Shown: one piece after another, positions 8,242-54,459 of the stretch
How positions within the stretch are numbered: the first letter of the stretch is position 1
How the letters are laid out: each line of letters starts with the position of its first letter
Assembly (NCBI GenBank): GCA_965223545.1
Contig: OZ245006.1
Coordinates: 7,744,001-7,808,000 of the forward strand
Length of the DNA stretch: 64,000 nt
Direction of reading: 5' to 3'
Origin: Planctomycetota bacterium
GTDB taxonomy: Bacteria; Planctomycetota; UBA1135; UBA2386
Notes under the pieces: model-generated
What the model saw: the letters and a program-made list of their open reading frames with translations, nothing else
The model's database searches: none
Told to the model about the DNA's origin: nothing
Translations under genes and position numbers: made by a program

Positions 8242-9348
8242 ATGCGTGTTGCCTATGTCGGAGGCCTCGGCCTGATGGCGTCCCCCGCAGCCCGACACCT
8301 TGCGGGCGGGCCCGCGCGCGTGCTGCGCGTGCACGACCGCGGCCAGCCGGGCGCGCGGCGCGACGCGGCGCGGGCGGCGTGGCGGGCACATGGGGCGGAG
8401 TTGGTGGGGGATCTTCGATCGTTGGTCGCCGGCGGGGACCTGGACGTCGTCGTGGTCTGTTGTGGCAAGAACGGAGACGACTTACCGCTGGTCGCCGAGC
8501 TCGGCGCTCGGTTGGCGCGCGCCGCGCCGGCGGCGACCGTGTTGCATCTCTCCACCGTCAGCACGGGCTTCGCCCGGGCGGCACACGCGTACTGCGGCGA
8601 CCGCGGCATCGCCTACGCCAACTATCCGCTGACCGGAGGCCCACTCGGTGCCGAGCGCGGTGGCGGCGAGGGCGGCATGCTGATCTTGGCGGGAGGCGAC
8701 CGAGCGCTCTACGACCGGCTCCGCCCGACGCTCGAGCGCCTGGGACACCCGCGCCACCTCGGCGCCCGCGTCGAGGCCGGCGCCGAGACCAAGCTGATCG
8801 GCCACCACATGGTGTTCGACGGCTGCATCGGCATGAGCGCGGCCGTCGCCCTGCACGCCGAGGGCTTCGCCGGCGGCGCGATCGGCGGGGACGAACAGGT
8901 CGCGTTCTTCGACTTCCTCAACGGCGGCGCCGGCGGCACCCGGCAGTGGGAGGTGGCGCTGGCCAAAGGTGTGCGTGACGGCGTGTGGGATCAGGGCTTC
9001 ATGCTGCGCCACGCCGTCGTCGACGCGATCTACGCGGCGGACTTGGCGATCGAACGCGGCCTGCCGCGGTTGGCAGTGCGACCGATCCTCGATCTGGCGT
9101 TGGCGTTCTCGCACTTGATGCATCGCGAGCCCGACCAGGATCTCGCGACGCACGCGGTCGCGCGCCAGATGCTGGCGGCGCACGCGGCGGAGTTGGATGC
9201 GTTCGCGTCGCGGCACGGCGCGGACGAGACGGATCCACGCATGGCTTTGCAGCGGTGCGTGGCGTCGCTGCCCGACGATGTGCGCGCGTCTGTGCGGCTC
9301 GATGTCGAAGCGGAGATGCTCGCCGATGCTGCGCGCGGTGTGGAGTGA
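8242..9348 (+). CDS. NAD(P)-dependent oxidoreductase, 3-hydroxyisobutyrate/6-phosphogluconate dehydrogenase family
   Basis: 'VGGLGLMA' Rossmann motif, 'LSTVS', 'PLTGG', 'GAETKL'; start uncertain (8227-8242). Confidence 0.75.
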   Translation: MRVAYVGGLGLMASPAARHLAGGPARVLRVHDRGQPGARRDAARAAWRAHGAELVGDLRSLVAGGDLDVVVVCCGKNGDDLPLVAELGARLARAAPAATVLHLSTVSTGFARAAHAYCGDRGIAYANYPLTGGPLGAERGGGEGGMLILAGGDRALYDRLRPTLERLGHPRHLGARVEAGAETKLIGHHMVFDGCIGMSAAVALHAEGFAGGAIGGDEQVAFFDFLNGGAGGTRQWEVALAKGVRDGVWDQGFMLRHAVVDAIYAADLAIERGLPRLAVRPILDLALAFSHLMHREPDQDLATHAVARQMLAAHAAELDAFASRHGADETDPRMALQRCVASLPDDVRASVRLDVEAEMLADAARGVE

Positions 9349-9390
9349 CGTTCCGAACCAGGTCCGGCCCCCTTTCGCAGACGTTCGTCT

Positions 9391-10208
9391 TCAGTTGCGA
9401 GAGGAGTCGCCTGCTCCGTTCGGTCGCTGCAGCAGGTCTGCTAGTGTCGGCCAGCTGTGTCCAGCGCGAGTGCGGGCCGTGCCGACCACCGTTGGCTGGT
9501 CATCGGGGACGACGATCCTCGCGTTGTCGAGCATGGTCGCGTGGTTGCCGAAGCTGCTGAGATCGGGCGTTTGGCCGAGAAGATCGCTTCCGATCATGGA
9601 CCAGTTGCCGACCAGGCCCGGCGCCCGGTGCCTGGGAATGCCCCGCATCCCGGCTTGGATCTCGGCCTGCGTACGGGCGACGTTCCAGATGCGTGCCTCA
9701 TCGATCATGCCCGCGAAGAAGTTGGTCGTGGATCCTGCCTGAGCGCCCAAGCGCAGGGGGACGGTGGACTCGAGCACAGGCCCGGCCGACACCGCCCGTT
9801 CGGTGTCGAGTTGGCCGTCGATGTAGAGCCGCGCGACGACGCCGTCGTAGGTGAAGGCCGCGTGGGTCCAAGTGTCTTCTTGGATCGGAATGACGCCATC
9901 GAAGAAGGTGCCTCCAACGTTTTCGTTGATGGCGACGCGCACACGCTGGATCGTGCGATGGTAGGACAGGCCGTAAGGGCGTTCTCCGAGCGAGCTGCTG
10001 AATTGCGCGATGATCGCCTCACGCCGTTGCTGAAGAAGGCGGAGGAGTTCGGATGAAACCAGGCCTCCGCGGTGATTTGTTGCAGCCCGCTCAGTGACGG
10101 GCTGTCGGCGATCTCGGCGGTGTCGTTGACGCCGTCTAGCAGCAGAACCGAGTTCAGCGTGAGGCTGCCCAGCGAAACAGCGGCGAGTCCCAGTGCAAAG
10201 TGCTTCAT
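9391..10208 (-). pseudogene. LamG/concanavalin A-like secreted protein with an apparent frameshift near 10020
   Basis: 'LLLDGVNDTAEI...ITAEAWFHP' in one frame; 'WTHAAFTYDG...LYIDGQL...GMIDEARIWN' in another. Confidence 0.65.
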
Positions 10209-31410: not shown

Positions 31411-31486
31411 TCCCCGATAGCTCAGTTGGTAGAGCAACTGACTGTTAATCAGTGGGTCGCAAGTTCGAGTCTTGCTCGGGGAGCCA
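31411..31486 (+). tRNA. tRNA-Asn (GTT)
   Basis: TCCCCGA/TCGGGGA acceptor stem, D-arm GCTCAGTTGGTAGAGC, anticodon loop CTGTTAA, TTCGAG T-loop, encoded CCA. Confidence 0.97.
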
Positions 31487-40765: not shown

Positions 40766-41527
40766 ATGGCGATTGACTTCCTGCAGATCGATCCGGAGTA
40801 CTTCGATCATCGCCGGTTCCGCGGCATCGGCTTCTGTGGCGTTGTTGCGTTTCAGTTTCTGCTGAAATCGCACAAGCGTAGACCCAACGACGGCATCGTC
40901 AGCGCCGACAGGGCGCACCCGGAGACCATCTGGTGTGGGATCTGCACGATCCAGGAAGGGGTCACTGTCGACGACGTCGCGTGTGCGATGCGCGTGCTGG
41001 CGGAGCGTGGTCTCATCGAGATCCTCGAAAACGGCTCCGTGTTCATCCCGGGCGTTGCCCGCTGGGGACAGAGGCTGTCCCCAGCCCAGACATCCTCTGA
41101 ACGGTCAAGGAAGTCCCGGTCGAGACCTGAACCAGTTGGTGGGCGAGATGCTGAAGAGGCGCCCACTTCTCGGCCATCTCCACCCAGAGAACAGCACCGG
41201 ACGCGCGGCAACAGCGGGACGAACGCAACGCAGTGGGACGCGATGGGACGGCTGGGACGTGTTGCAACGCGATGGGACGGTTGGGACGAACTGCAACGCG
41301 ATGGGACGGATGCAACGCGCGCAACGCTAGAACGAGAACGAGAGCTAGAACGACAGATGACCGGTACCGCCCTCCCTCGCGGTACCGCTAAGAAGGTGGT
41401 GGAGGTGGATATCCCCTCTCAGGTACGGAACGGCGTACCTAAACCACCCTCCGTACCTGACCCACCCCCACCCCCTTCACGCCAGACCGCAACAGGTCCA
41501 CCGCGTAACAGCCGGAGGTGCTCATGA
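40766..41527 (+). CDS. Phage replication initiator (replisome-organizer-like)
   Basis: wHTH-like N-terminus ending 'L.ERGLIEI..NGSVFI', 'TSSERSRKSR' motif, internal iteron-like repeats. Confidence 0.65.
   Translation: MAIDFLQIDPEYFDHRRFRGIGFCGVVAFQFLLKSHKRRPNDGIVSADRAHPETIWCGICTIQEGVTVDDVACAMRVLAERGLIEILENGSVFIPGVARWGQRLSPAQTSSERSRKSRSRPEPVGGRDAEEAPTSRPSPPREQHRTRGNSGTNATQWDAMGRLGRVATRWDGWDELQRDGTDATRATLERERELERQMTGTALPRGTAKKVVEVDIPSQVRNGVPKPPSVPDPPPPPSRQTATGPPRNSRRCS
41215..41353 (+). repeat. Iteron-like direct repeats (putative phage origin)
   Basis: TGGGACG x6 and GCAACG x5 at ~9-10 nt spacing, then AGAACGA x3. Confidence 0.7.
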
Positions 41528-45749: not shown

Positions 45750-46610
45750 ATGTTGAGTGGACAGGTGACGGTGCTTCGGCACTGGGACGATGGTGTGCGG
45801 CTCCGGACGACGGTGCCGGGGATTCCGGATGCAGATTGTGCGCTGCGGTTCTTCCGTGGCAGTGGCAGCAACTCAGGCACGGTCATGCTGCACAGCGGGA
45901 CCACGGGGGCCGAGTACATCAGCTCGTCGCCCGAGGGCTTGGAGTTCGTGGCCAACCTGATCGTTAGGGGCTACACGGTCGTCGACCGCAAGTGGCTCGG
46001 GGGATGGTTCGCGGCCGGCTACTCGATCCGTGAGGCGGCGCAGCGAGGTGCGTTGGTCGCCGATTGGGTCATGACGACCGGTGGAACCGGCGGCGGGCTG
46101 CAGGGGCCGTTCCGGGCATACGGCAACTCAGGCGGTGCAGCGGAGGTCGCCTACGGCTTGACCTCGTACGGCATGGGCGATCGCTGGGACCGGGTCGTGC
46201 TTGGCGGTGGGCCACCGATGACGCGACTGCAGTACCTCTGCGCGAGCCCGCCGCCGGCGGCTTGGCTGCAGGAGGCTGAGGCCGCGCTGCAGCCGTACGC
46301 GTCGCAGTTCACCTGCAGCCCGATGACCTGGACGGATCCTGCGACCGTGGTTTGCCCGGTCATCAGCGGCGTTGCGCCTGGTGCTCTGGCTGAGGCGAGC
46401 GTGTTGCATCCGGGGGCGACAACTTCGTTCGGGTGCGAGGTGTCGATGCTGCTCGGGAGCAACGACTGCACGGTTGCAACTCCGCAAGCGGCGGTGTTCT
46501 TCACGGCGATCTCGAGCGCGAAGACGATCTCGATCGTGCCGGGTGGCGAGCACTTCATGCCGGCGACGGCTGGGGGGCGGGCTGCGATCCTGGCCGAGGT
46601 GGATCGGTGA
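45750..46610 (+). CDS. Alpha/beta-hydrolase fold protein
   Basis: Nucleophile elbow 'GNSGG', 'GSND', 'PGGEH'. Confidence 0.7.
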   Translation: MLSGQVTVLRHWDDGVRLRTTVPGIPDADCALRFFRGSGSNSGTVMLHSGTTGAEYISSSPEGLEFVANLIVRGYTVVDRKWLGGWFAAGYSIREAAQRGALVADWVMTTGGTGGGLQGPFRAYGNSGGAAEVAYGLTSYGMGDRWDRVVLGGGPPMTRLQYLCASPPPAAWLQEAEAALQPYASQFTCSPMTWTDPATVVCPVISGVAPGALAEASVLHPGATTSFGCEVSMLLGSNDCTVATPQAAVFFTAISSAKTISIVPGGEHFMPATAGGRAAILAEVDR

Positions 46611-46669
46611 GCGGGAGAGTGCATGCATCGCCACTCGCGCGAGTGCATGCAATTTTCTTCGCCGATCTA

Positions 46670-46719
46670 TTGCGCTGCTCACACCACTTCAGTAGAAGTG
46701 GATGAGGCGAACTTTCGCC
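46670..46719 (+). promoter_or_regulatory. Putative sigma70 promoter with operator-like palindromes upstream of the RAMP gene
   Basis: TTGCGC-17 nt-TAGAAG; CCACTTC-4-GAAGTGG overlaps the -10; GGCGAA-CT-TTCGCC downstream. Confidence 0.45.
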
Positions 46720-46775
46720 ATGTTCGGCGGCCTTGCACCACACGGGGCCGTCAACCACGAACACAGGAACAAGTG

Positions 46776-47342
46776 ATGAAAACTTGCACGGTTACGTTGC
46801 GGGGTGCCTCACCCTATTCGCAGTCCCGGCCCTTCCAGACCGAGATCGGCCCGAAGGAGTCGCACGAGGCGTTCGAAAAGCGCTGCTGGAGCGAGCGGCT
46901 CCACAAGAACGGCAACGGCGACGTCATCATTCCGCCGACGAGCCTCAAGGACTGTCTTTGGCAGGGCGCGAAGTACCTGTCAATCAAGAAGAAGGGGCAG
47001 CAGACATGGACCAAACACTTCCGATCCGGAGTGATGGTCGTCGTCGCTCCGGTCTTGACGGTCAAGGCAGATGAGGTAGAGGGTGAGTGGCTGTTCCTGA
47101 ATGCCGATGGCAAGAAGGGCTCTGGCACTCGCGTTTGGCGCTGCTACCCGAAGATCCCGGAGGGATGGCAGACGAACGTCTCGTTCGTGGTTCTGGACGA
47201 CGAGATCACTCAGGACATCTTCTTCCGCGTTCTGCGGGAATCCGGGATGCTGATCGGCATTGGTAGGTTTCGGCCGGAGAACGGGGGCTACTACGGTCGG
47301 TTCGACTTCGATCCGAAAGAGGCCCAGTGGGTCGAGGGCTAG
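46776..47342 (+). CDS. Stand-alone Cas7/RAMP-like protein (188 aa)
   Basis: N-terminal strand 'TVTLRGASP', 'IIPPTSLKDCL', 'RCYPKI', terminal G-rich loop 'GIGRFRPENGGYYGRF'. Confidence 0.75.
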   Translation: MKTCTVTLRGASPYSQSRPFQTEIGPKESHEAFEKRCWSERLHKNGNGDVIIPPTSLKDCLWQGAKYLSIKKKGQQTWTKHFRSGVMVVVAPVLTVKADEVEGEWLFLNADGKKGSGTRVWRCYPKIPEGWQTNVSFVVLDDEITQDIFFRVLRESGMLIGIGRFRPENGGYYGRFDFDPKEAQWVEG

Positions 47343-47345
47343 TTT

Positions 47346-47668
47346 CGCAACGCCTCGCGACGCTGCGCCGCGCCACGCCGCGCATCGCACCGCACCGCGT
47401 CGCACCGCTCCGCTTCGCCCCGCTTCGCGGCGCAACTCCATGCAACGATCCAGCTTCCCGCCGCACCGCGGCGCCTCGCCGCGCACCGCCCCGCCGACCC
47501 CACATCGCTCCGTACCGCACCGCGGCACATCACAGCTCTACTCGACGCAACGCAACGAACTGACCCAAGCGATTTTCCAACACGTCGCCACGCGCCACGA
47601 CGCGTTGCGCTTCAACGCGACGCTACTCAACGCCACACCACTTATCGCGACGCTCCGCAACTCAACGT
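47346..47668 (+). ncRNA. (CGC-NN)n pentamer array 1, three units; putative guide RNAs
   Basis: 18 consecutive perfect CGC-NN at 47346-47435; units 47346-47448, 47462-47558, 47581-47668, each ending in an xxC-AA-CG motif; RNA role inferred. Confidence 0.7.
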
Positions 47669-47696
47669 CTTTCTACCCGCAAGGGAGGGCCTAGCA

Positions 47697-48224
47697 ATGA
47701 CCGAGACCAGAGTCGAGCTGAAGGGCAAGAAGAGCCCGATTCACCCGCCGCACCCGGATACGCGAATCCTGGTGGAGAAACTGCGTGCCATCGAGCCGGG
47801 GGCGACCGTCACCTACTCCGAGATTGCAGAGTGGGTCGGTCGCGATCCGCAAAAGCAGCGAGGTCCGCTTGTCTCCGCGATGCGACGGTTGCTGCAGGAG
47901 GGCATCCGTTACGTCAGCGTCAAGAACGTGGGCGTCCAACGCTATACCAGCAGCCAGATCGTCAACCAGGATCTGCTGAAGGCGACGGTCAAGATCGGCC
48001 GGGCTGCTCGGCGCGCTGTTGCGGTCGCAGCAAACTGCGTTGACGTCACGAAACTGAGCCCGGACGAGCGCCGCGACTTGGAGGCGCGGAACTCGGTGCT
48101 CTACTTCGCGGCGAAGGGAACCAGTCAGAGCTTCGTCAAGCGCTTGCGCGAGCACGTTCCGGAGAGCTTGGAGGCGCTGCCGTTGTCGCGGACGCTGGAG
48201 GTTTTTCGGGAGACTCAGTCCTGA
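47697..48224 (+). CDS. Winged-HTH-like DNA-binding protein between the two arrays
   Basis: 'PGATVTYSEIAEWVG' helix-turn-helix; GGAGG RBS. Confidence 0.65.
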   Translation: MTETRVELKGKKSPIHPPHPDTRILVEKLRAIEPGATVTYSEIAEWVGRDPQKQRGPLVSAMRRLLQEGIRYVSVKNVGVQRYTSSQIVNQDLLKATVKIGRAARRAVAVAANCVDVTKLSPDERRDLEARNSVLYFAAKGTSQSFVKRLREHVPESLEALPLSRTLEVFRETQS

Positions 48225-48228
48225 CCTC

Positions 48229-48939
48229 TACCACGCTTCGCGGCGCTCCGCAGCGCTTCGCGCCGCAACGTGACGCTCTGCCTCGCAACGCTTCGCATCG
48301 CAACCCCTCTTTTTTCCACGCATCGCCCTGCCGTGCCCTGCATCGCTCCACACCGCACCTTGGCACATCGCAGCGCTACGCAACGCGACCGACAAACCAA
48401 CTCACACAACCTGCAGCATTCCACAGCGCCCCGCGTCGCAGCTCTCCGCGCCGCTCCGCAGTGCCGCGCAGCACTGCACTTCGCGTCGCATTGCTCCGCA
48501 ACTCACCGCAACGATTCTCATCTTCTCGCCGCCGCTCCCCTCGACGCGCTGCATCGCTTCGTGGCGCATCGCAGCGCTCCGCGGCGCGCTGCAACGCTCC
48601 GCAACGATTCCATCTTCCCGACGCCACGCCTCACGACTCACCGCCCCGCTTCGCGTCATATCGCATCGCCTCGCCGTTCCACGCATCGCTCCTCGACGCA
48701 GCGCTCGGCGCCGCAACGTTTCAGCCCCCCAATACATCTACTTCGCAGTGCGCTGCACTGCTTCGCTCCGCAACACTACGTGGCGCATCGCTTCGCTCCG
48801 CAGCACTACGCAACGATTTGGCTTCCGTCGACGCGCTGCATCGCTCCGCCCCATTACGCCGTGCTCCGCTTCGCCGCGCTCTTCTCCGCTCCGCTACTCG
48901 TCGCAGCGCACCTTATCGCGACTCAACTCAACGCAACTT
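48229..48939 (+). ncRNA. (CGC-NN)n pentamer array 2, seven units; putative guide RNAs
   Basis: Units 48229-48303, 48314-48388, 48412-48514, 48525-48607, 48617-48719, 48739-48816, 48827-48939, separated by G-poor linkers; RNA role inferred. Confidence 0.7.
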
Positions 48940-48957
48940 CTTGGGGGGTGATCTCGG

Positions 48958-49443
48958 ATGCCAAGAACTAACATCTACGTTCCTGATCCTCTTCGTGCCC
49001 GCATGAGAGAGCACCGCGCGAACTGGTCGAGAGTCTGTGCCGCCGCGATTGCCGCCAAGCTTGAGGAGATCGACCGCGATTCCAAAGCAACTCTTTCGGA
49101 CGACGCGGTCGTCACTCGATTACTTGCGACCAAGTCGGACGACCAGGTTCAAGACGAGACCCTGGGATTCAACGTAGGCGTCCGGTGGGCCAAGACCAGG
49201 GCCCGGTGGCGCGAGCTAGAGAGCCTGGAGCGGGCTCATCCCAAGCGCGCCTCTGATTTGGATGCCACGGAATGGCTCTGGTCCGCGATTGGCCGAGAAG
49301 GTCACCCTACTCCTGACGAAATCCAGGAGTTGTTCGACCGTCCGCCAACAAGGGTCTCCCAGAGCCTTGCCAACGGGTTCGTCACCGGAGCGCTCGCGGT
49401 GTTCAGGGACGTGCAGAAGCAGATCGCCGGCGGGGCTGGATAG
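48958..49443 (+). CDS. Ribbon-helix-helix (CcdA-like N-terminus) protein
   Basis: 'RTNIYVPDPLRARM....NWSRVCAAAI'. Confidence 0.65.
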   Translation: MPRTNIYVPDPLRARMREHRANWSRVCAAAIAAKLEEIDRDSKATLSDDAVVTRLLATKSDDQVQDETLGFNVGVRWAKTRARWRELESLERAHPKRASDLDATEWLWSAIGREGHPTPDEIQELFDRPPTRVSQSLANGFVTGALAVFRDVQKQIAGGAG

Positions 49444-49491
49444 TTGCCGCCGGAGATGGTTGGCGCCCTGAGGCTGCCCTGAGGCTTTGGC

Positions 49492-49884
49492 ATGGCAACA
49501 GATACGCAACCACCACAGAAGCCAACGCAATGCGAGCGTCACCGCGTCTATTGGTGCGGGGATTCGGTGAGGCCGAGCTTTTCCATCTACTACTCAGTGA
49601 CTGCCTACTACATGCGCTTTTTTGTTTTGCGCATCATCGACACGGACGGTTCCGCACCGATCTACCAGACCGTCCCCGACCGAGGCGGCATGCCCCGGGA
49701 CACGAAGGACATCGATGCTGCTGCATGCTCGATGCAGGGAGAGGCCAAGTGGGATCACTGTTGCGAGGTCGATATCGGGAGCCATTACCTAGGCGGGAAA
49801 GAGGACGCCATAGTTCTTGGGAGGATGGTCGAGGCGGTCTACAGCCTGGCCGCCGAAGAGATTCCTCGCTGGGATGTGCGGTGA
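49492..49884 (+). CDS. Hypothetical protein
   Basis: ORF with lower GC; 'GEAKWDHC'. Confidence 0.5.
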   Translation: MATDTQPPQKPTQCERHRVYWCGDSVRPSFSIYYSVTAYYMRFFVLRIIDTDGSAPIYQTVPDRGGMPRDTKDIDAAACSMQGEAKWDHCCEVDIGSHYLGGKEDAIVLGRMVEAVYSLAAEEIPRWDVR

Positions 49885-52826: not shown

Positions 52827-54398
52827 CTACAGAAGCCCGCACGCAGCCTCTGTTCGTCCTCGCGCCTGTCGGCTCAGCCATTCTCTCCGCTGCCGACAGA
52901 GCAGGTCAAACGCCTCCTCGGGATCTGTCAGCGACGGCGCCACATCCGCCGCCTGCGAGATCAGTGCGGCCGCTTCCGGCTCCGCACCGATGAGTAACGA
53001 CCGGAGCAGCCCCGCCCCATCCACCGCAGCGATCGCGGTCGCCCGCTCAACAATCGGCCCGACCACTCCAAGCTCAGGCTCGGCTGTCGCCATCGCGGCG
53101 AGGTGGGGCCTGGCGATCACGCACGCGAGCAGCTCGACGGACGATTGCGCAAGCGGGTCCGCTCGCTTGGGGGGCTCCGCGTCGCGCTTGTGCTTGGTCG
53201 CGACTCGGATCGGTTGGATGCCAAGCTCGCGCCCCATCCGCTGCCCGAGCAGCTCGCGCTCGGCGGGATCCTCGATGACACCTAGCACACGCCGACAGTC
53301 CGCCAAGACCTCGCGGTCGGGGCGACCCCGCTTAAGGCCCAGCCACACCCGCAGCGCGTCGTCCGCCGAATCCACGATCCCGCGCAACTGTTCGGGCTGA
53401 GTGCGCGCCAGGTCGGCGGGGTCGACGCCCTCAGGCAGTAGTCCTATGCGCAGGTCGAGTCCAACGGGCGCGAGTTCCGCGTATGCCCGTTCCGCCGCGG
53501 CGCGCCCCGCCTTGTCGCCGTCGAGTAGGAGCACGACCCCATCCGACGCCCAGCGTGCAAGCGCTTGCCCGTGATCGGCAGTGATCGAGGTCCCAAGCGC
53601 CGCGACCGCCCCTGTCAGCCCCGCGCCGTGGCAAGCGAGCACGTCGGTGTAGCCTTCAACCACGACGATGCGGCGGGCGCCGGCGCGCTTGGCCTGGTGG
53701 AGGCCGTAGAGCTGTCGCCGCTTCTGGAAGGCTGGCGACTCGGGGGAGTTGATGTACTTGGCGCGAGCCTGGGTCATCGCGCGGCCGCCGAAGCCGACGA
53801 TGCGGCCGCGGGCGTCGGCGATCGGGAACATGAGTCGACCTAGGAACGGTTCGCGGTCGCCGCGTAGGATCCCAGTCGCGTCGAGCGCTGCCAGGTCGAG
53901 ACCCTCGCGTCGCACCCATCCAGCGAGCGCGCCCGGATTGCCAGGATGTAGCCCGACGCCGAACGTGGCCGCAATCTCGCCAAGCCCGCGGTCCTCGAGG
54001 TACGAGCGTGCCCGGGCTCCGGCCGGACTCCGGAGGTGAGCTTGGCAAGCTCTTGCCACGGCTTGGAGCGCTTCCGACGGCTGTGGCGCCCGGGTCGAAG
54101 GTCCGGAGAAGATGCCTTCGGTGTCGATCCCGGCTCGCCGTCCAAGTTCCTCCACAGCCTCGCGGAAGCTCAGCCCCTCGCGCTCCTGCAGCAGCGCGAA
54201 AGCGTCTCCTGATGCCCCGCAGCCATAGCATTTCCAACGCTGCGAGTCCGGGTAGACGGTAAAGGACGACGTCCGCTCCTGGTGTAGAGGGCAGAGACCG
54301 ACGAGCCGATGGCCACTCGGCTTGAGCCGCGTGTACCCCTCGACAAGCGCTGCGAGGTCGGTGGCCTCCTTGATTTGCAGCTTGCGGGACTCGTCCAT
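52827..54398 (-). CDS. dnaG: DnaG-type DNA primase (element-encoded)
   Basis: CHC2 Zn finger 'CPLHQERTSSF...KCYGCG', 'FGGR...KYINSPES', Toprim 'VEGYTDV', 'DGDKAG', 'DPAD'. Confidence 0.92.
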   Translation of the reverse strand: MDESRKLQIKEATDLAALVEGYTRLKPSGHRLVGLCPLHQERTSSFTVYPDSQRWKCYGCGASGDAFALLQEREGLSFREAVEELGRRAGIDTEGIFSGPSTRAPQPSEALQAVARACQAHLRSPAGARARSYLEDRGLGEIAATFGVGLHPGNPGALAGWVRREGLDLAALDATGILRGDREPFLGRLMFPIADARGRIVGFGGRAMTQARAKYINSPESPAFQKRRQLYGLHQAKRAGARRIVVVEGYTDVLACHGAGLTGAVAALGTSITADHGQALARWASDGVVLLLDGDKAGRAAAERAYAELAPVGLDLRIGLLPEGVDPADLARTQPEQLRGIVDSADDALRVWLGLKRGRPDREVLADCRRVLGVIEDPAERELLGQRMGRELGIQPIRVATKHKRDAEPPKRADPLAQSSVELLACVIARPHLAAMATAEPELGVVGPIVERATAIAAVDGAGLLRSLLIGAEPEAAALISQAADVAPSLTDPEEAFDLLCRQRREWLSRQARGRTEAACGLL

Positions 54399-54459
54399 CA
54401 CGTCTCGATCACGGTAGGATTGCGCCGGGAGCTAGCTGGACGCCCACGGAGCCGCGACC

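Follow-up and report, generated by a model that had tools for sequence, protein, structure and literature searches.

Whether a lone Cas7-like gene accompanied by arrays of five-base repeats forms a working RNA-guided system, and against what such a system would be directed, is the question raised by positions 46776–49443 of a 64,000-nucleotide stretch of DNA from a Planctomycetota bacterium (GenBank assembly GCA_965223545.1, contig OZ245006.1, positions 7,744,001 to 7,808,000 of the forward strand; hereafter the window, whose numbering is used unless a contig is named). The source genome comprises 8.1 Mb at 70% GC, and its chromosome contig and second contig are referred to as G000:C1 and G000:C2 (C1 and C2). 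VIPR is a CRISPR-related RNA-guided DNA silencer whose usual scaffold is GGY; it is defined by Vipr, vrRNA and vap, and seven types as well as NNNGG, YNNNG and NNNNG variants have been described (10.64898/2026.04.26.720920). Judged from its sequence, the locus is a real VIPR system, and by the comparisons below it is very probably the VIPR with which a temperate phage protects its tail from a parasitic satellite, acting as the VIPR of phage SUSP1 does.

The vipr open reading frame (ORF; 46776..47342, + strand) encodes 188 amino acids, a minimal single-RRM RAMP protein with a thumb at about residues 102–127 and a G-loop at residues 161–176. An earlier reading of the letters alone (the sequence-only reading) had described this ORF correctly but had set a motif at its very end, whereas the motif, GIGRFRPENGGYYGRF, stops 12 residues short of the C-terminus. 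The predicted Cas7/RAMP-like fold was borne out by the AlphaFold 2 (AF2) model (predicted local distance difference test score, pLDDT, 96): Foldseek matched Cas7/Csm3 at an E-value of 1e-7, VIA-align superposed the model on Csm3 with a Z-score of 12.3 and a root-mean-square deviation of 2.5 over 146 aligned residues, and the best fold matches were type III/VII Cas7 proteins. The SUSP1 Vipr structure was not among the matches of Foldseek (library to 8 April 2026) or VIA-align. The resemblance to VIPR, which the sequence-only reading had proposed, was confirmed by profile comparison, as a profile of 116 homologues retrieved SUSP1 Vipr (36pp_D, E 5.2e-9) as the sole significant chain in the PDB, the next standing at 0.029. 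The family profile also aligns with LESphi2 Vipr at 98% probability, LESphi2 Vipr in turn matches SUSP1 Vipr at E 1.8e-41, and identity to type II-like Vipr is about 25%. Homologues of the vipr product numbered 530 among 564 candidates; a single-sequence scan of viral contigs with Vipr found no relative, and an alignment-based scan found relatives. Pfam gave no match for Vipr, and PHROGs matched it only to phrog_4652, of unknown function. The proposed lack of CRISPR machinery also held: PADLOC matched none of the three locus proteins, Cas1 was not found in the source genome (a 91%-complete assembly), no ribozyme or other Rfam family was found in 46500–49600, and the repeat-spacer array and multi-gene cas operon of class 1 CRISPR-Cas are missing at the locus.

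The order of genes and arrays is as first described, with every component on the + strand. The first base of array 1 (47346 to about 47670; guides U1–U3) lies 3 nt past the vipr stop codon. It is followed by vap (47697..48224; 175 amino acids, with a winged helix-turn-helix (wHTH)-like N-terminus and long helices), array 2 (48234–48936; guides U4–U10) and a ribbon-helix-helix (RHH)-like phage gene (48958..49443; 161 amino acids) that adjoins array 2. Over the arrays, the excess of period-5 autocorrelation is 0.21–0.28, compared with a median of 0.00 (standard deviation 0.04) for the window. CGC is found in 116 of 185 phased pentamers, some of them counted twice in overlapping runs, and the remainder are mostly CTC, CAC, TGC and CGT. 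Information content reaches 1.5, 0.85 and 1.5 bits at the three scaffold positions and only 0.04 and 0.02 bits at the variable positions 4 and 5 (NN), which is in line with the constant CGC and variable NN envisaged for each guide. Because the run finder was scored in favor of CGC, the scaffold conservation is partly built in, but the variability of NN is not affected.

Together, the arrays amount to about ten guides of the form (CGC-NN)14–21 that flank vap. In array 1, U1 (47346..47445) has 20 pentamers, U2 (47457..47555) has 8 + 11 pentamers, the phase slipping by one base at 47497–47500, and U3 (47581..47665) has 17; in array 2, U4 (48234..48303), U5 (48314..48383) and U9 (48744..48813) have 14 each, U6 (48422..48511) has 18, U7 (48525..48604) 16, U8 (48617..48716) 20 and U10 (48832..48936) 21. 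One to three scaffold-AA units and a short linker rich in pyrimidines close the guides. No folded 3′ tail was detected, as the predicted folding of the ten guide tails did not surpass that of shuffles (z −1.0 to +1.6). In the paralogous guides U2 and U5, eight consecutive NN (16/16 bases) are identical while 8 of the 24 scaffold bases differ, as expected if the selected information sits in NN. Undoing the slip in U2 lengthens this identity from 8 to 11 units, and U2 may thus be a decaying duplicate. The last guides of the two arrays, U3 and U10, have similar endings in both scaffold and NN (47641–47670 and 48907–48936), which suggests duplication or conversion between array ends. Two long ORFs spanning the arrays (47260–47694 and 48270–48971) were taken as by-products of stop-poor repeats. 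Neither a sigma-70-like promoter nor a terminator was found inside the locus, and one terminator-like site lies at 49563. The intergenic region 5′ of vipr (46605–46775) is predicted to form three long hairpins (−71.5 kcal/mol, a value without shuffle control) and holds no guide, whereas many relatives have one before vipr.

That homologues should stand beside such arrays was likewise confirmed. In a family set of 125 loci (80 viral, 44 genomic and the window), pentamer runs occur near the vipr homologue in 118. The AA dinucleotide is enriched at the 3′ end of 291 runs (59%, 51% and 29% in the last three units). Although the run finder is blind to strand, the + strand is indicated by the gene orientation, the correspondence of GGC members to canonical GGY on that strand, and the 3′ enrichment of AA.

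The system is carried by a 77-kb prophage. A repeat of 40 bp or more marks its two ends, with one attachment (att) site at 31442, in a tRNA-Asn gene (31411..31486, + strand), and the other copy at C1:7852897, beyond the window; the terminase, portal, major head and tape-measure genes of the prophage lie past the window end. The targets of the guides were sought with 11 queries (terminal AA dropped, U2 as two pieces) over the 8.1-Mb genome, with zero to three bases skipped between successive NN. With one base skipped (skip 1), U6 matches at 28 of 34 positions and U10 at 31 of 40, scores that none of 150 genome-wide shuffles reached for either guide, whereas skips 0, 2 and 3 give 22, 22 and 22 for U6 and the other skips 25, 27 and 25 for U10. 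U7 matches at 22 of 30 positions under the same skip, a score attained by 38 of 60 genome-wide shuffles but by none of 200 within the element described below. The best hits of U6, U10 and U7 all fall within 10 kb inside this one element, of 14.7 kb (C1:4158920–4173601), which is located at tRNA-Met with 20-bp att repeats. U6 matches its tape-measure gene in antisense (C1:4165768–4165818), U7 its ParB-like gene in antisense (C1:4161163–4161207), and U10 one of its tyrosine integrase genes, identified with PHROGs and Pfam, in antisense (C1:4170894–4170953). Eight consecutive NN of U8 match the tape-measure gene in the sense orientation (from C1:4166180); this core reaches 16/16, a score attained by none of 200 local shuffles, against 13/16 in the tape-measure gene of the prophage itself, and the whole guide reaches only 23/38. 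U6 and U10 likewise exceed all 200 shuffles within the element. U1 has a partial, weak match in the element, equaled locally in 1 of 200 shuffles. The skipped base falls on the wobble position, codon position 3, for U4, U6, U7, U8 and U10, and is ambiguous for U1.

Among 547 tiles, the element ranked first for U6, U8 and U10 and second for U1 and U7, the other six queries ranking it from 40 to 547; its summed z was 37.8 against 10.2 for the next tile. On sequence evidence, the suggestion that the guides are aimed at rival elements is thereby substantiated, as five of them converge on one satellite-like element. A candidate target of U4 lies elsewhere, in codons 3–15 of a virion gene on C2 (39.6 kb; loci L127 and L128), which is another phage with capsid, portal and tape-measure genes; the match of 20/26 is in wobble phase and was reached by 0 of 200 shuffles within C2 and 7 of 60 genome-wide. 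In the prophage that carries them, the guides have no significant match under skip 1. A perfect 14/14 host hit of the first U2 piece (U2a) was rejected as chance, since 2 of 8 shuffles equaled it, and the only CGC tract found elsewhere in the 8.1 Mb (C1:4103406) was rejected as a solo guide because it lies inside a coding frame. The U5 core, searched as an exact pattern in viral contigs, and the U6 core, searched likewise in metagenomes, gave 0 matches. Among 223 guides of related loci compared with 0.95 Mb of flanking sequence, there was a slight skip-1 excess at 18–19/20 (8 versus 1, 3 and 5 under the other skips and 2 in shuffles), which is not used as support.

Twelve of the 17 ORFs picked in the element were scanned; they include ParB-like, tape-measure and two tyrosine integrase genes, and no head or terminase gene was hit among these 12. 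The tape measures of element and prophage are 39.9% identical over 951 columns, with 72–76% DNA identity at both ends, and the U6 target lies in a part that has diverged from the copy of the prophage (21/34 there). Weak matches to the element tape measure were found in 3 of 60 related genomes. No att junction of the element was found in contigs of four sequencing runs, a result uninformative on excision as contigs drop rare forms. Decayed pieces related to the element (78–88% DNA identity) occur at C1:6909589–6918381 and C1:7922194–7923011, one of them adjoining tRNA-Ser and interrupted by what looks like an insertion sequence.

By analogy with SUSP1 VIPR, the operon would be transcribed on the + strand, and Vipr subunits would polymerize on the guide, one per pentamer, with CGC buried and NN presented. 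The filament would then bind double-stranded DNA, skipping every third base, and would block transcription without cutting, vap assisting. Since silencing does not cut, helper and target can share one chromosome. With its integrase, ParB-like and tape-measure genes silenced, the element would be unable to excise or to take over tail assembly upon prophage induction; that the prophage serves as its helper is suggested by the homology of the tape measures.

Several observations weigh against this account of the targets. Only U6 passes the 80% threshold that has been applied to guide-target matches (10.64898/2026.04.26.720920), U10 reaching 78% and U7 73%; U1 and U8 match only in part; U2, U3, U5 and U9 have no target in the genome scan; the tile grid took the already discovered element as its anchor; and 0/50 was likewise obtained in two skip-3 tests out of about 260 tests. 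The incomplete matches (73–82%, with half-matches for U1 and U8 and four guides lacking a target) lend themselves to a second, rather unlikely explanation, in which the VIPR machinery is the same but the true targets were others, of which the resident element is only a relative or an escaped descendant; the guides would then be a record of past encounters, and the present copy would no longer be silenced. The persistence of an intact element beside the prophage and the decayed relative at C1 6.91–6.92 Mb fit that explanation as well. However, a target would survive a non-cutting silencer in any case, five guides converge on a single 14.7-kb element, and SUSP1 vrRNA4 is reported to have acted at an average match of 89% to its satellites (10.64898/2026.10.15.759431).

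That the complex aims at messenger RNA rather than DNA, as Csm3, the closest solved fold, does, is suggested by the lead of type III/VII Cas7 among the fold matches but is very unlikely: although U6, U7 and U10 would pair with mRNA, U8 and U4 correspond to the coding strand, and SUSP1 VIPR binds double-stranded DNA according to two reports (10.64898/2026.04.26.720920 and 10.64898/2026.04.26.720927). It is hardly credible that the arrays are no more than low-complexity repeats without function, or DNA boxes bound by protein, with matches that arise by chance. The 70% GC of the genome, which raises chance matches, and the U2a hit speak for this reading; against it, the U6 and U10 matches exceed all 150 shuffles and are skip-1 specific, co-located and wobble-phased, and the arrays accompany the gene in nearly all loci of the family while the sole other CGC tract of the genome lies in a coding frame.

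The CGC scaffold raises the further question of how a Vipr protein recognizes a triplet other than GGY. Removal of duplicates and one fragment left 108 proteins, of which 18 with weak arrays were not labeled. In the 90 labeled loci, the scaffold is CGC in 36, GGC in 34, GAC in 9, GTC in 5, CTC in 3, and GTT, CAC and GGA in 1 each, and the window locus has the most runs (10). The idea that CGC marks a distinct clade was not upheld, as relatives use GGC about as often; on the best trees, obtained by quick methods, CGC requires 12–13 changes, while the well-supported branches are compatible with a single origin, and a separate CGC clade is accordingly not shown by these sequences. CGC fits the published YNNNG variant (10.64898/2026.04.26.720920).

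Mutual information pointed to the thumb columns 108–109 for scaffold base 1; for base 2, it pointed to columns 164 and 15. V108-P109 is present in 34/34 GGC loci and 0/36 CGC loci, or in 49 of 50 G-first and 3 of 40 C-first loci, and S15 together with R164 in 71/71 G-second and 2/10 A-second loci. In a held-out test with the rule fixed beforehand, 80 metagenome loci were collected; once near-copies and loci with weak arrays (32 in all) had been removed, base 1 was predicted correctly in all 48 that were kept (35 G, 13 C). At base 2, S15 and R164 were found in 37/37 held-out G-second loci and were lacking in 3 of 6 A-second loci. The covariation points to thumb residues 108–109, with residue 124, as setting C versus G at base 1, and to S15 and R164 as favoring G at base 2. 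In the structure of SUSP1 Vipr, G1 is reported to be read by H17 and D177, G2 by R138 and W178, and Y3 by a pocket with R179 (10.64898/2026.04.26.720927). Here, H17, R138 and D177 are replaced by S17, Y124 and R164, and W178 and R179 are kept as F165 and R166, the correspondence of S17 being that of an ungapped N-terminal reading. The thumb goes with base 1 and the G-loop with base 2, a pairing crossed with respect to that in SUSP1.

These data may tentatively be taken to mean that the scaffold code of the family is switchable, with residues 108–109/124 (base 1) and S15/S17/R164 (base 2) re-tuned repeatedly along with whole arrays (GGC, CGC, GAC, GTC), which would yield mutually orthogonal Vipr-guide pairs and would blind the Vipr of a phage to the GGY decoy guides by which satellites and rival phages hijack it. 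Three points count against the rule: the three CTC loci, the only C-first loci with V108-P109, all keep it (3/3); 3 of the 6 held-out A-second loci retain S15/R164; and independent pairs on well-supported branches number only one or two, too few for a test. The binding chemistry is extrapolated, because the guanine-reading residues of SUSP1 are replaced. The locus set is biased toward R164, as the searches used conserved peptide patterns. It is doubtful, yet conceivable, that the correlation instead reflects shared ancestry or hitch-hiking and that Vipr proteins bind any S-N-C scaffold. The poorly resolved tree, on which a single CGC origin is possible, the degenerate scaffold of the window, the CTC exception and the success of nearest-neighbor labels in 44 of the 48 held-out loci would all accord with this alternative, but the residue rule was right in the 4 cases in which the neighbor label was wrong, and its strongest columns map to the thumb, beta-1 and the G-loop, which in SUSP1 Vipr form the surfaces that read RNA.

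Individual relatives provide side observations. The first guide after vipr in one locus (L103:5589) is a CGC guide that decodes, in codon phase, to the codons of the Vipr G-loop, matching vipr of locus L023 at 19/20 and its own gene at 18/20, with a best of 18 in 1165 shuffles; autoregulation or an anti-VIPR guide is possible. The same G-loop decoding in L035:5427 and L124:4895 (17/20) is within the shuffle range. One family member (L105) lies on a contig titled as an archaeon, and no array was detected there.

Among the neighboring genes, the 175-amino-acid gene has a homologue 3′ of vipr in 84 of 108 Vipr loci, and its AF2 model (pLDDT 94) shows a wHTH and long helices; Foldseek matched wHTH regulators, all more weakly than E 0.001. 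By hhalign, its family resembles the genes that follow vipr in LESphi2 (81%, E 1.2e-5) and in Felixounavirus VSe11 (74%, E 2.7e-5), and this remote likeness underlies its designation as vap. A word-index search found no vap homologue, although 84 occur in the retrieved loci. For the RHH-like gene, which had been counted as part of the system, no homologue follows any of the other 107 Vipr genes examined; by sequence, it is not a conserved VIPR component, and the wHTH gene is conserved instead. Similar ESM Atlas clusters offer a lead only (29% with CcdA or 14% with RHH_12). The gene has two tandem homologues in the targeted element (41% and 34% identical; C1:4161741–4162595) and may encode a regulator that helper and satellite have exchanged. 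Just 5′ of vipr, a 286-amino-acid gene (45750–46610) has an apparent paralogue with a similar N-terminus at C1:6920089, beside a decayed element. Elsewhere in the prophage, a DnaG-like primase is encoded on the opposite strand (52827–54401, −), and GGGAC-containing repeats of 10, 19 and 29 bp occur at 41234–41319 within a 253-amino-acid ORF (40766–41527), presumably resembling replication-origin iterons in an initiator gene. A weak period-5 signal lies outside the prophage, at 9151–9450.

In comparison with known systems, the locus shares with type II VIPR (SUSP1 and a P. fulva prophage) a single-RRM RAMP protein of about 20 kDa, pentamer guides with a fixed triplet and variable NN, an accessory gene of DNA-binding type (by remote homology), a phage location without a nuclease, and a one-base skip on the wobble position on both strands, here by computation alone. 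It differs in its CGC scaffold (GGC makes up 1 of 185 pentamers), its two arrays with about ten guides of 14–21 units, its terminal AA units in place of a folded 3′ tail, and the substitutions at the positions of H17, R138 and D177; by its sequence, it is a variant outside type II in scaffold, tail and base-reading residues. Like class 1 CRISPR Cas7/Csm3, its Vipr has an RRM core, a thumb and a G-loop, but the guide is read non-contiguously and neither a CRISPR array nor cas genes are present.

With respect to targets, the SUSP1 report describes a VIPR that immobilizes a tape-measure-bearing satellite via its recombinase, and decoy solo guides (10.64898/2026.10.15.759431). SUSP1 and its F5 satellites, so far as described there, resemble the present pair in the integrated satellite target, the tape measure related to that of the helper, the hit on a recombinase gene and the skipped wobble base. 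Here, however, the helper is a temperate prophage on the same chromosome as the element, the tape measures are 40% identical rather than 26%, no baseplate gene was detected, and no solo CGC guide was found in the element.

Preprints have already described the system type, the existence of non-canonical scaffolds and the role against satellites. The accessible text of another report lists 21 clusters with non-canonical triplets and names GAC, CAC, WGT and TGH (10.64898/2026.10.21.760802); these arrays, like the variants in 10.64898/2026.04.26.720920, place alternative fixed triplets beside Vipr-like folds, and for them that text gives neither natural targets nor a residue rule. CGC as a scaffold has 0 occurrences in the available text of 10.64898/2026.10.21.760802 and in the supplement of 10.64898/2026.04.26.720920, whose figures may show it, and the accessible text of the VIPR preprints, whose figures and supplements may contain more, mentions neither natural targets for non-GGY guides nor a residue-scaffold rule. 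The published VIPR experiments, as far as that text shows, use GGY guides in a system described months ago. Against this background, the locus offers natural-target evidence that a non-GGY scaffold obeys the same skip code, with helper prophage and target satellite in one cell. The residue-scaffold rule makes scaffold reading and the orthogonality of variants testable, which is relevant to multiplexed tools and to the evasion of decoy guides, and if the scaffold code is switchable, the native CGC guides and the co-resident tail-parasitizing satellite would form a ready test pair.

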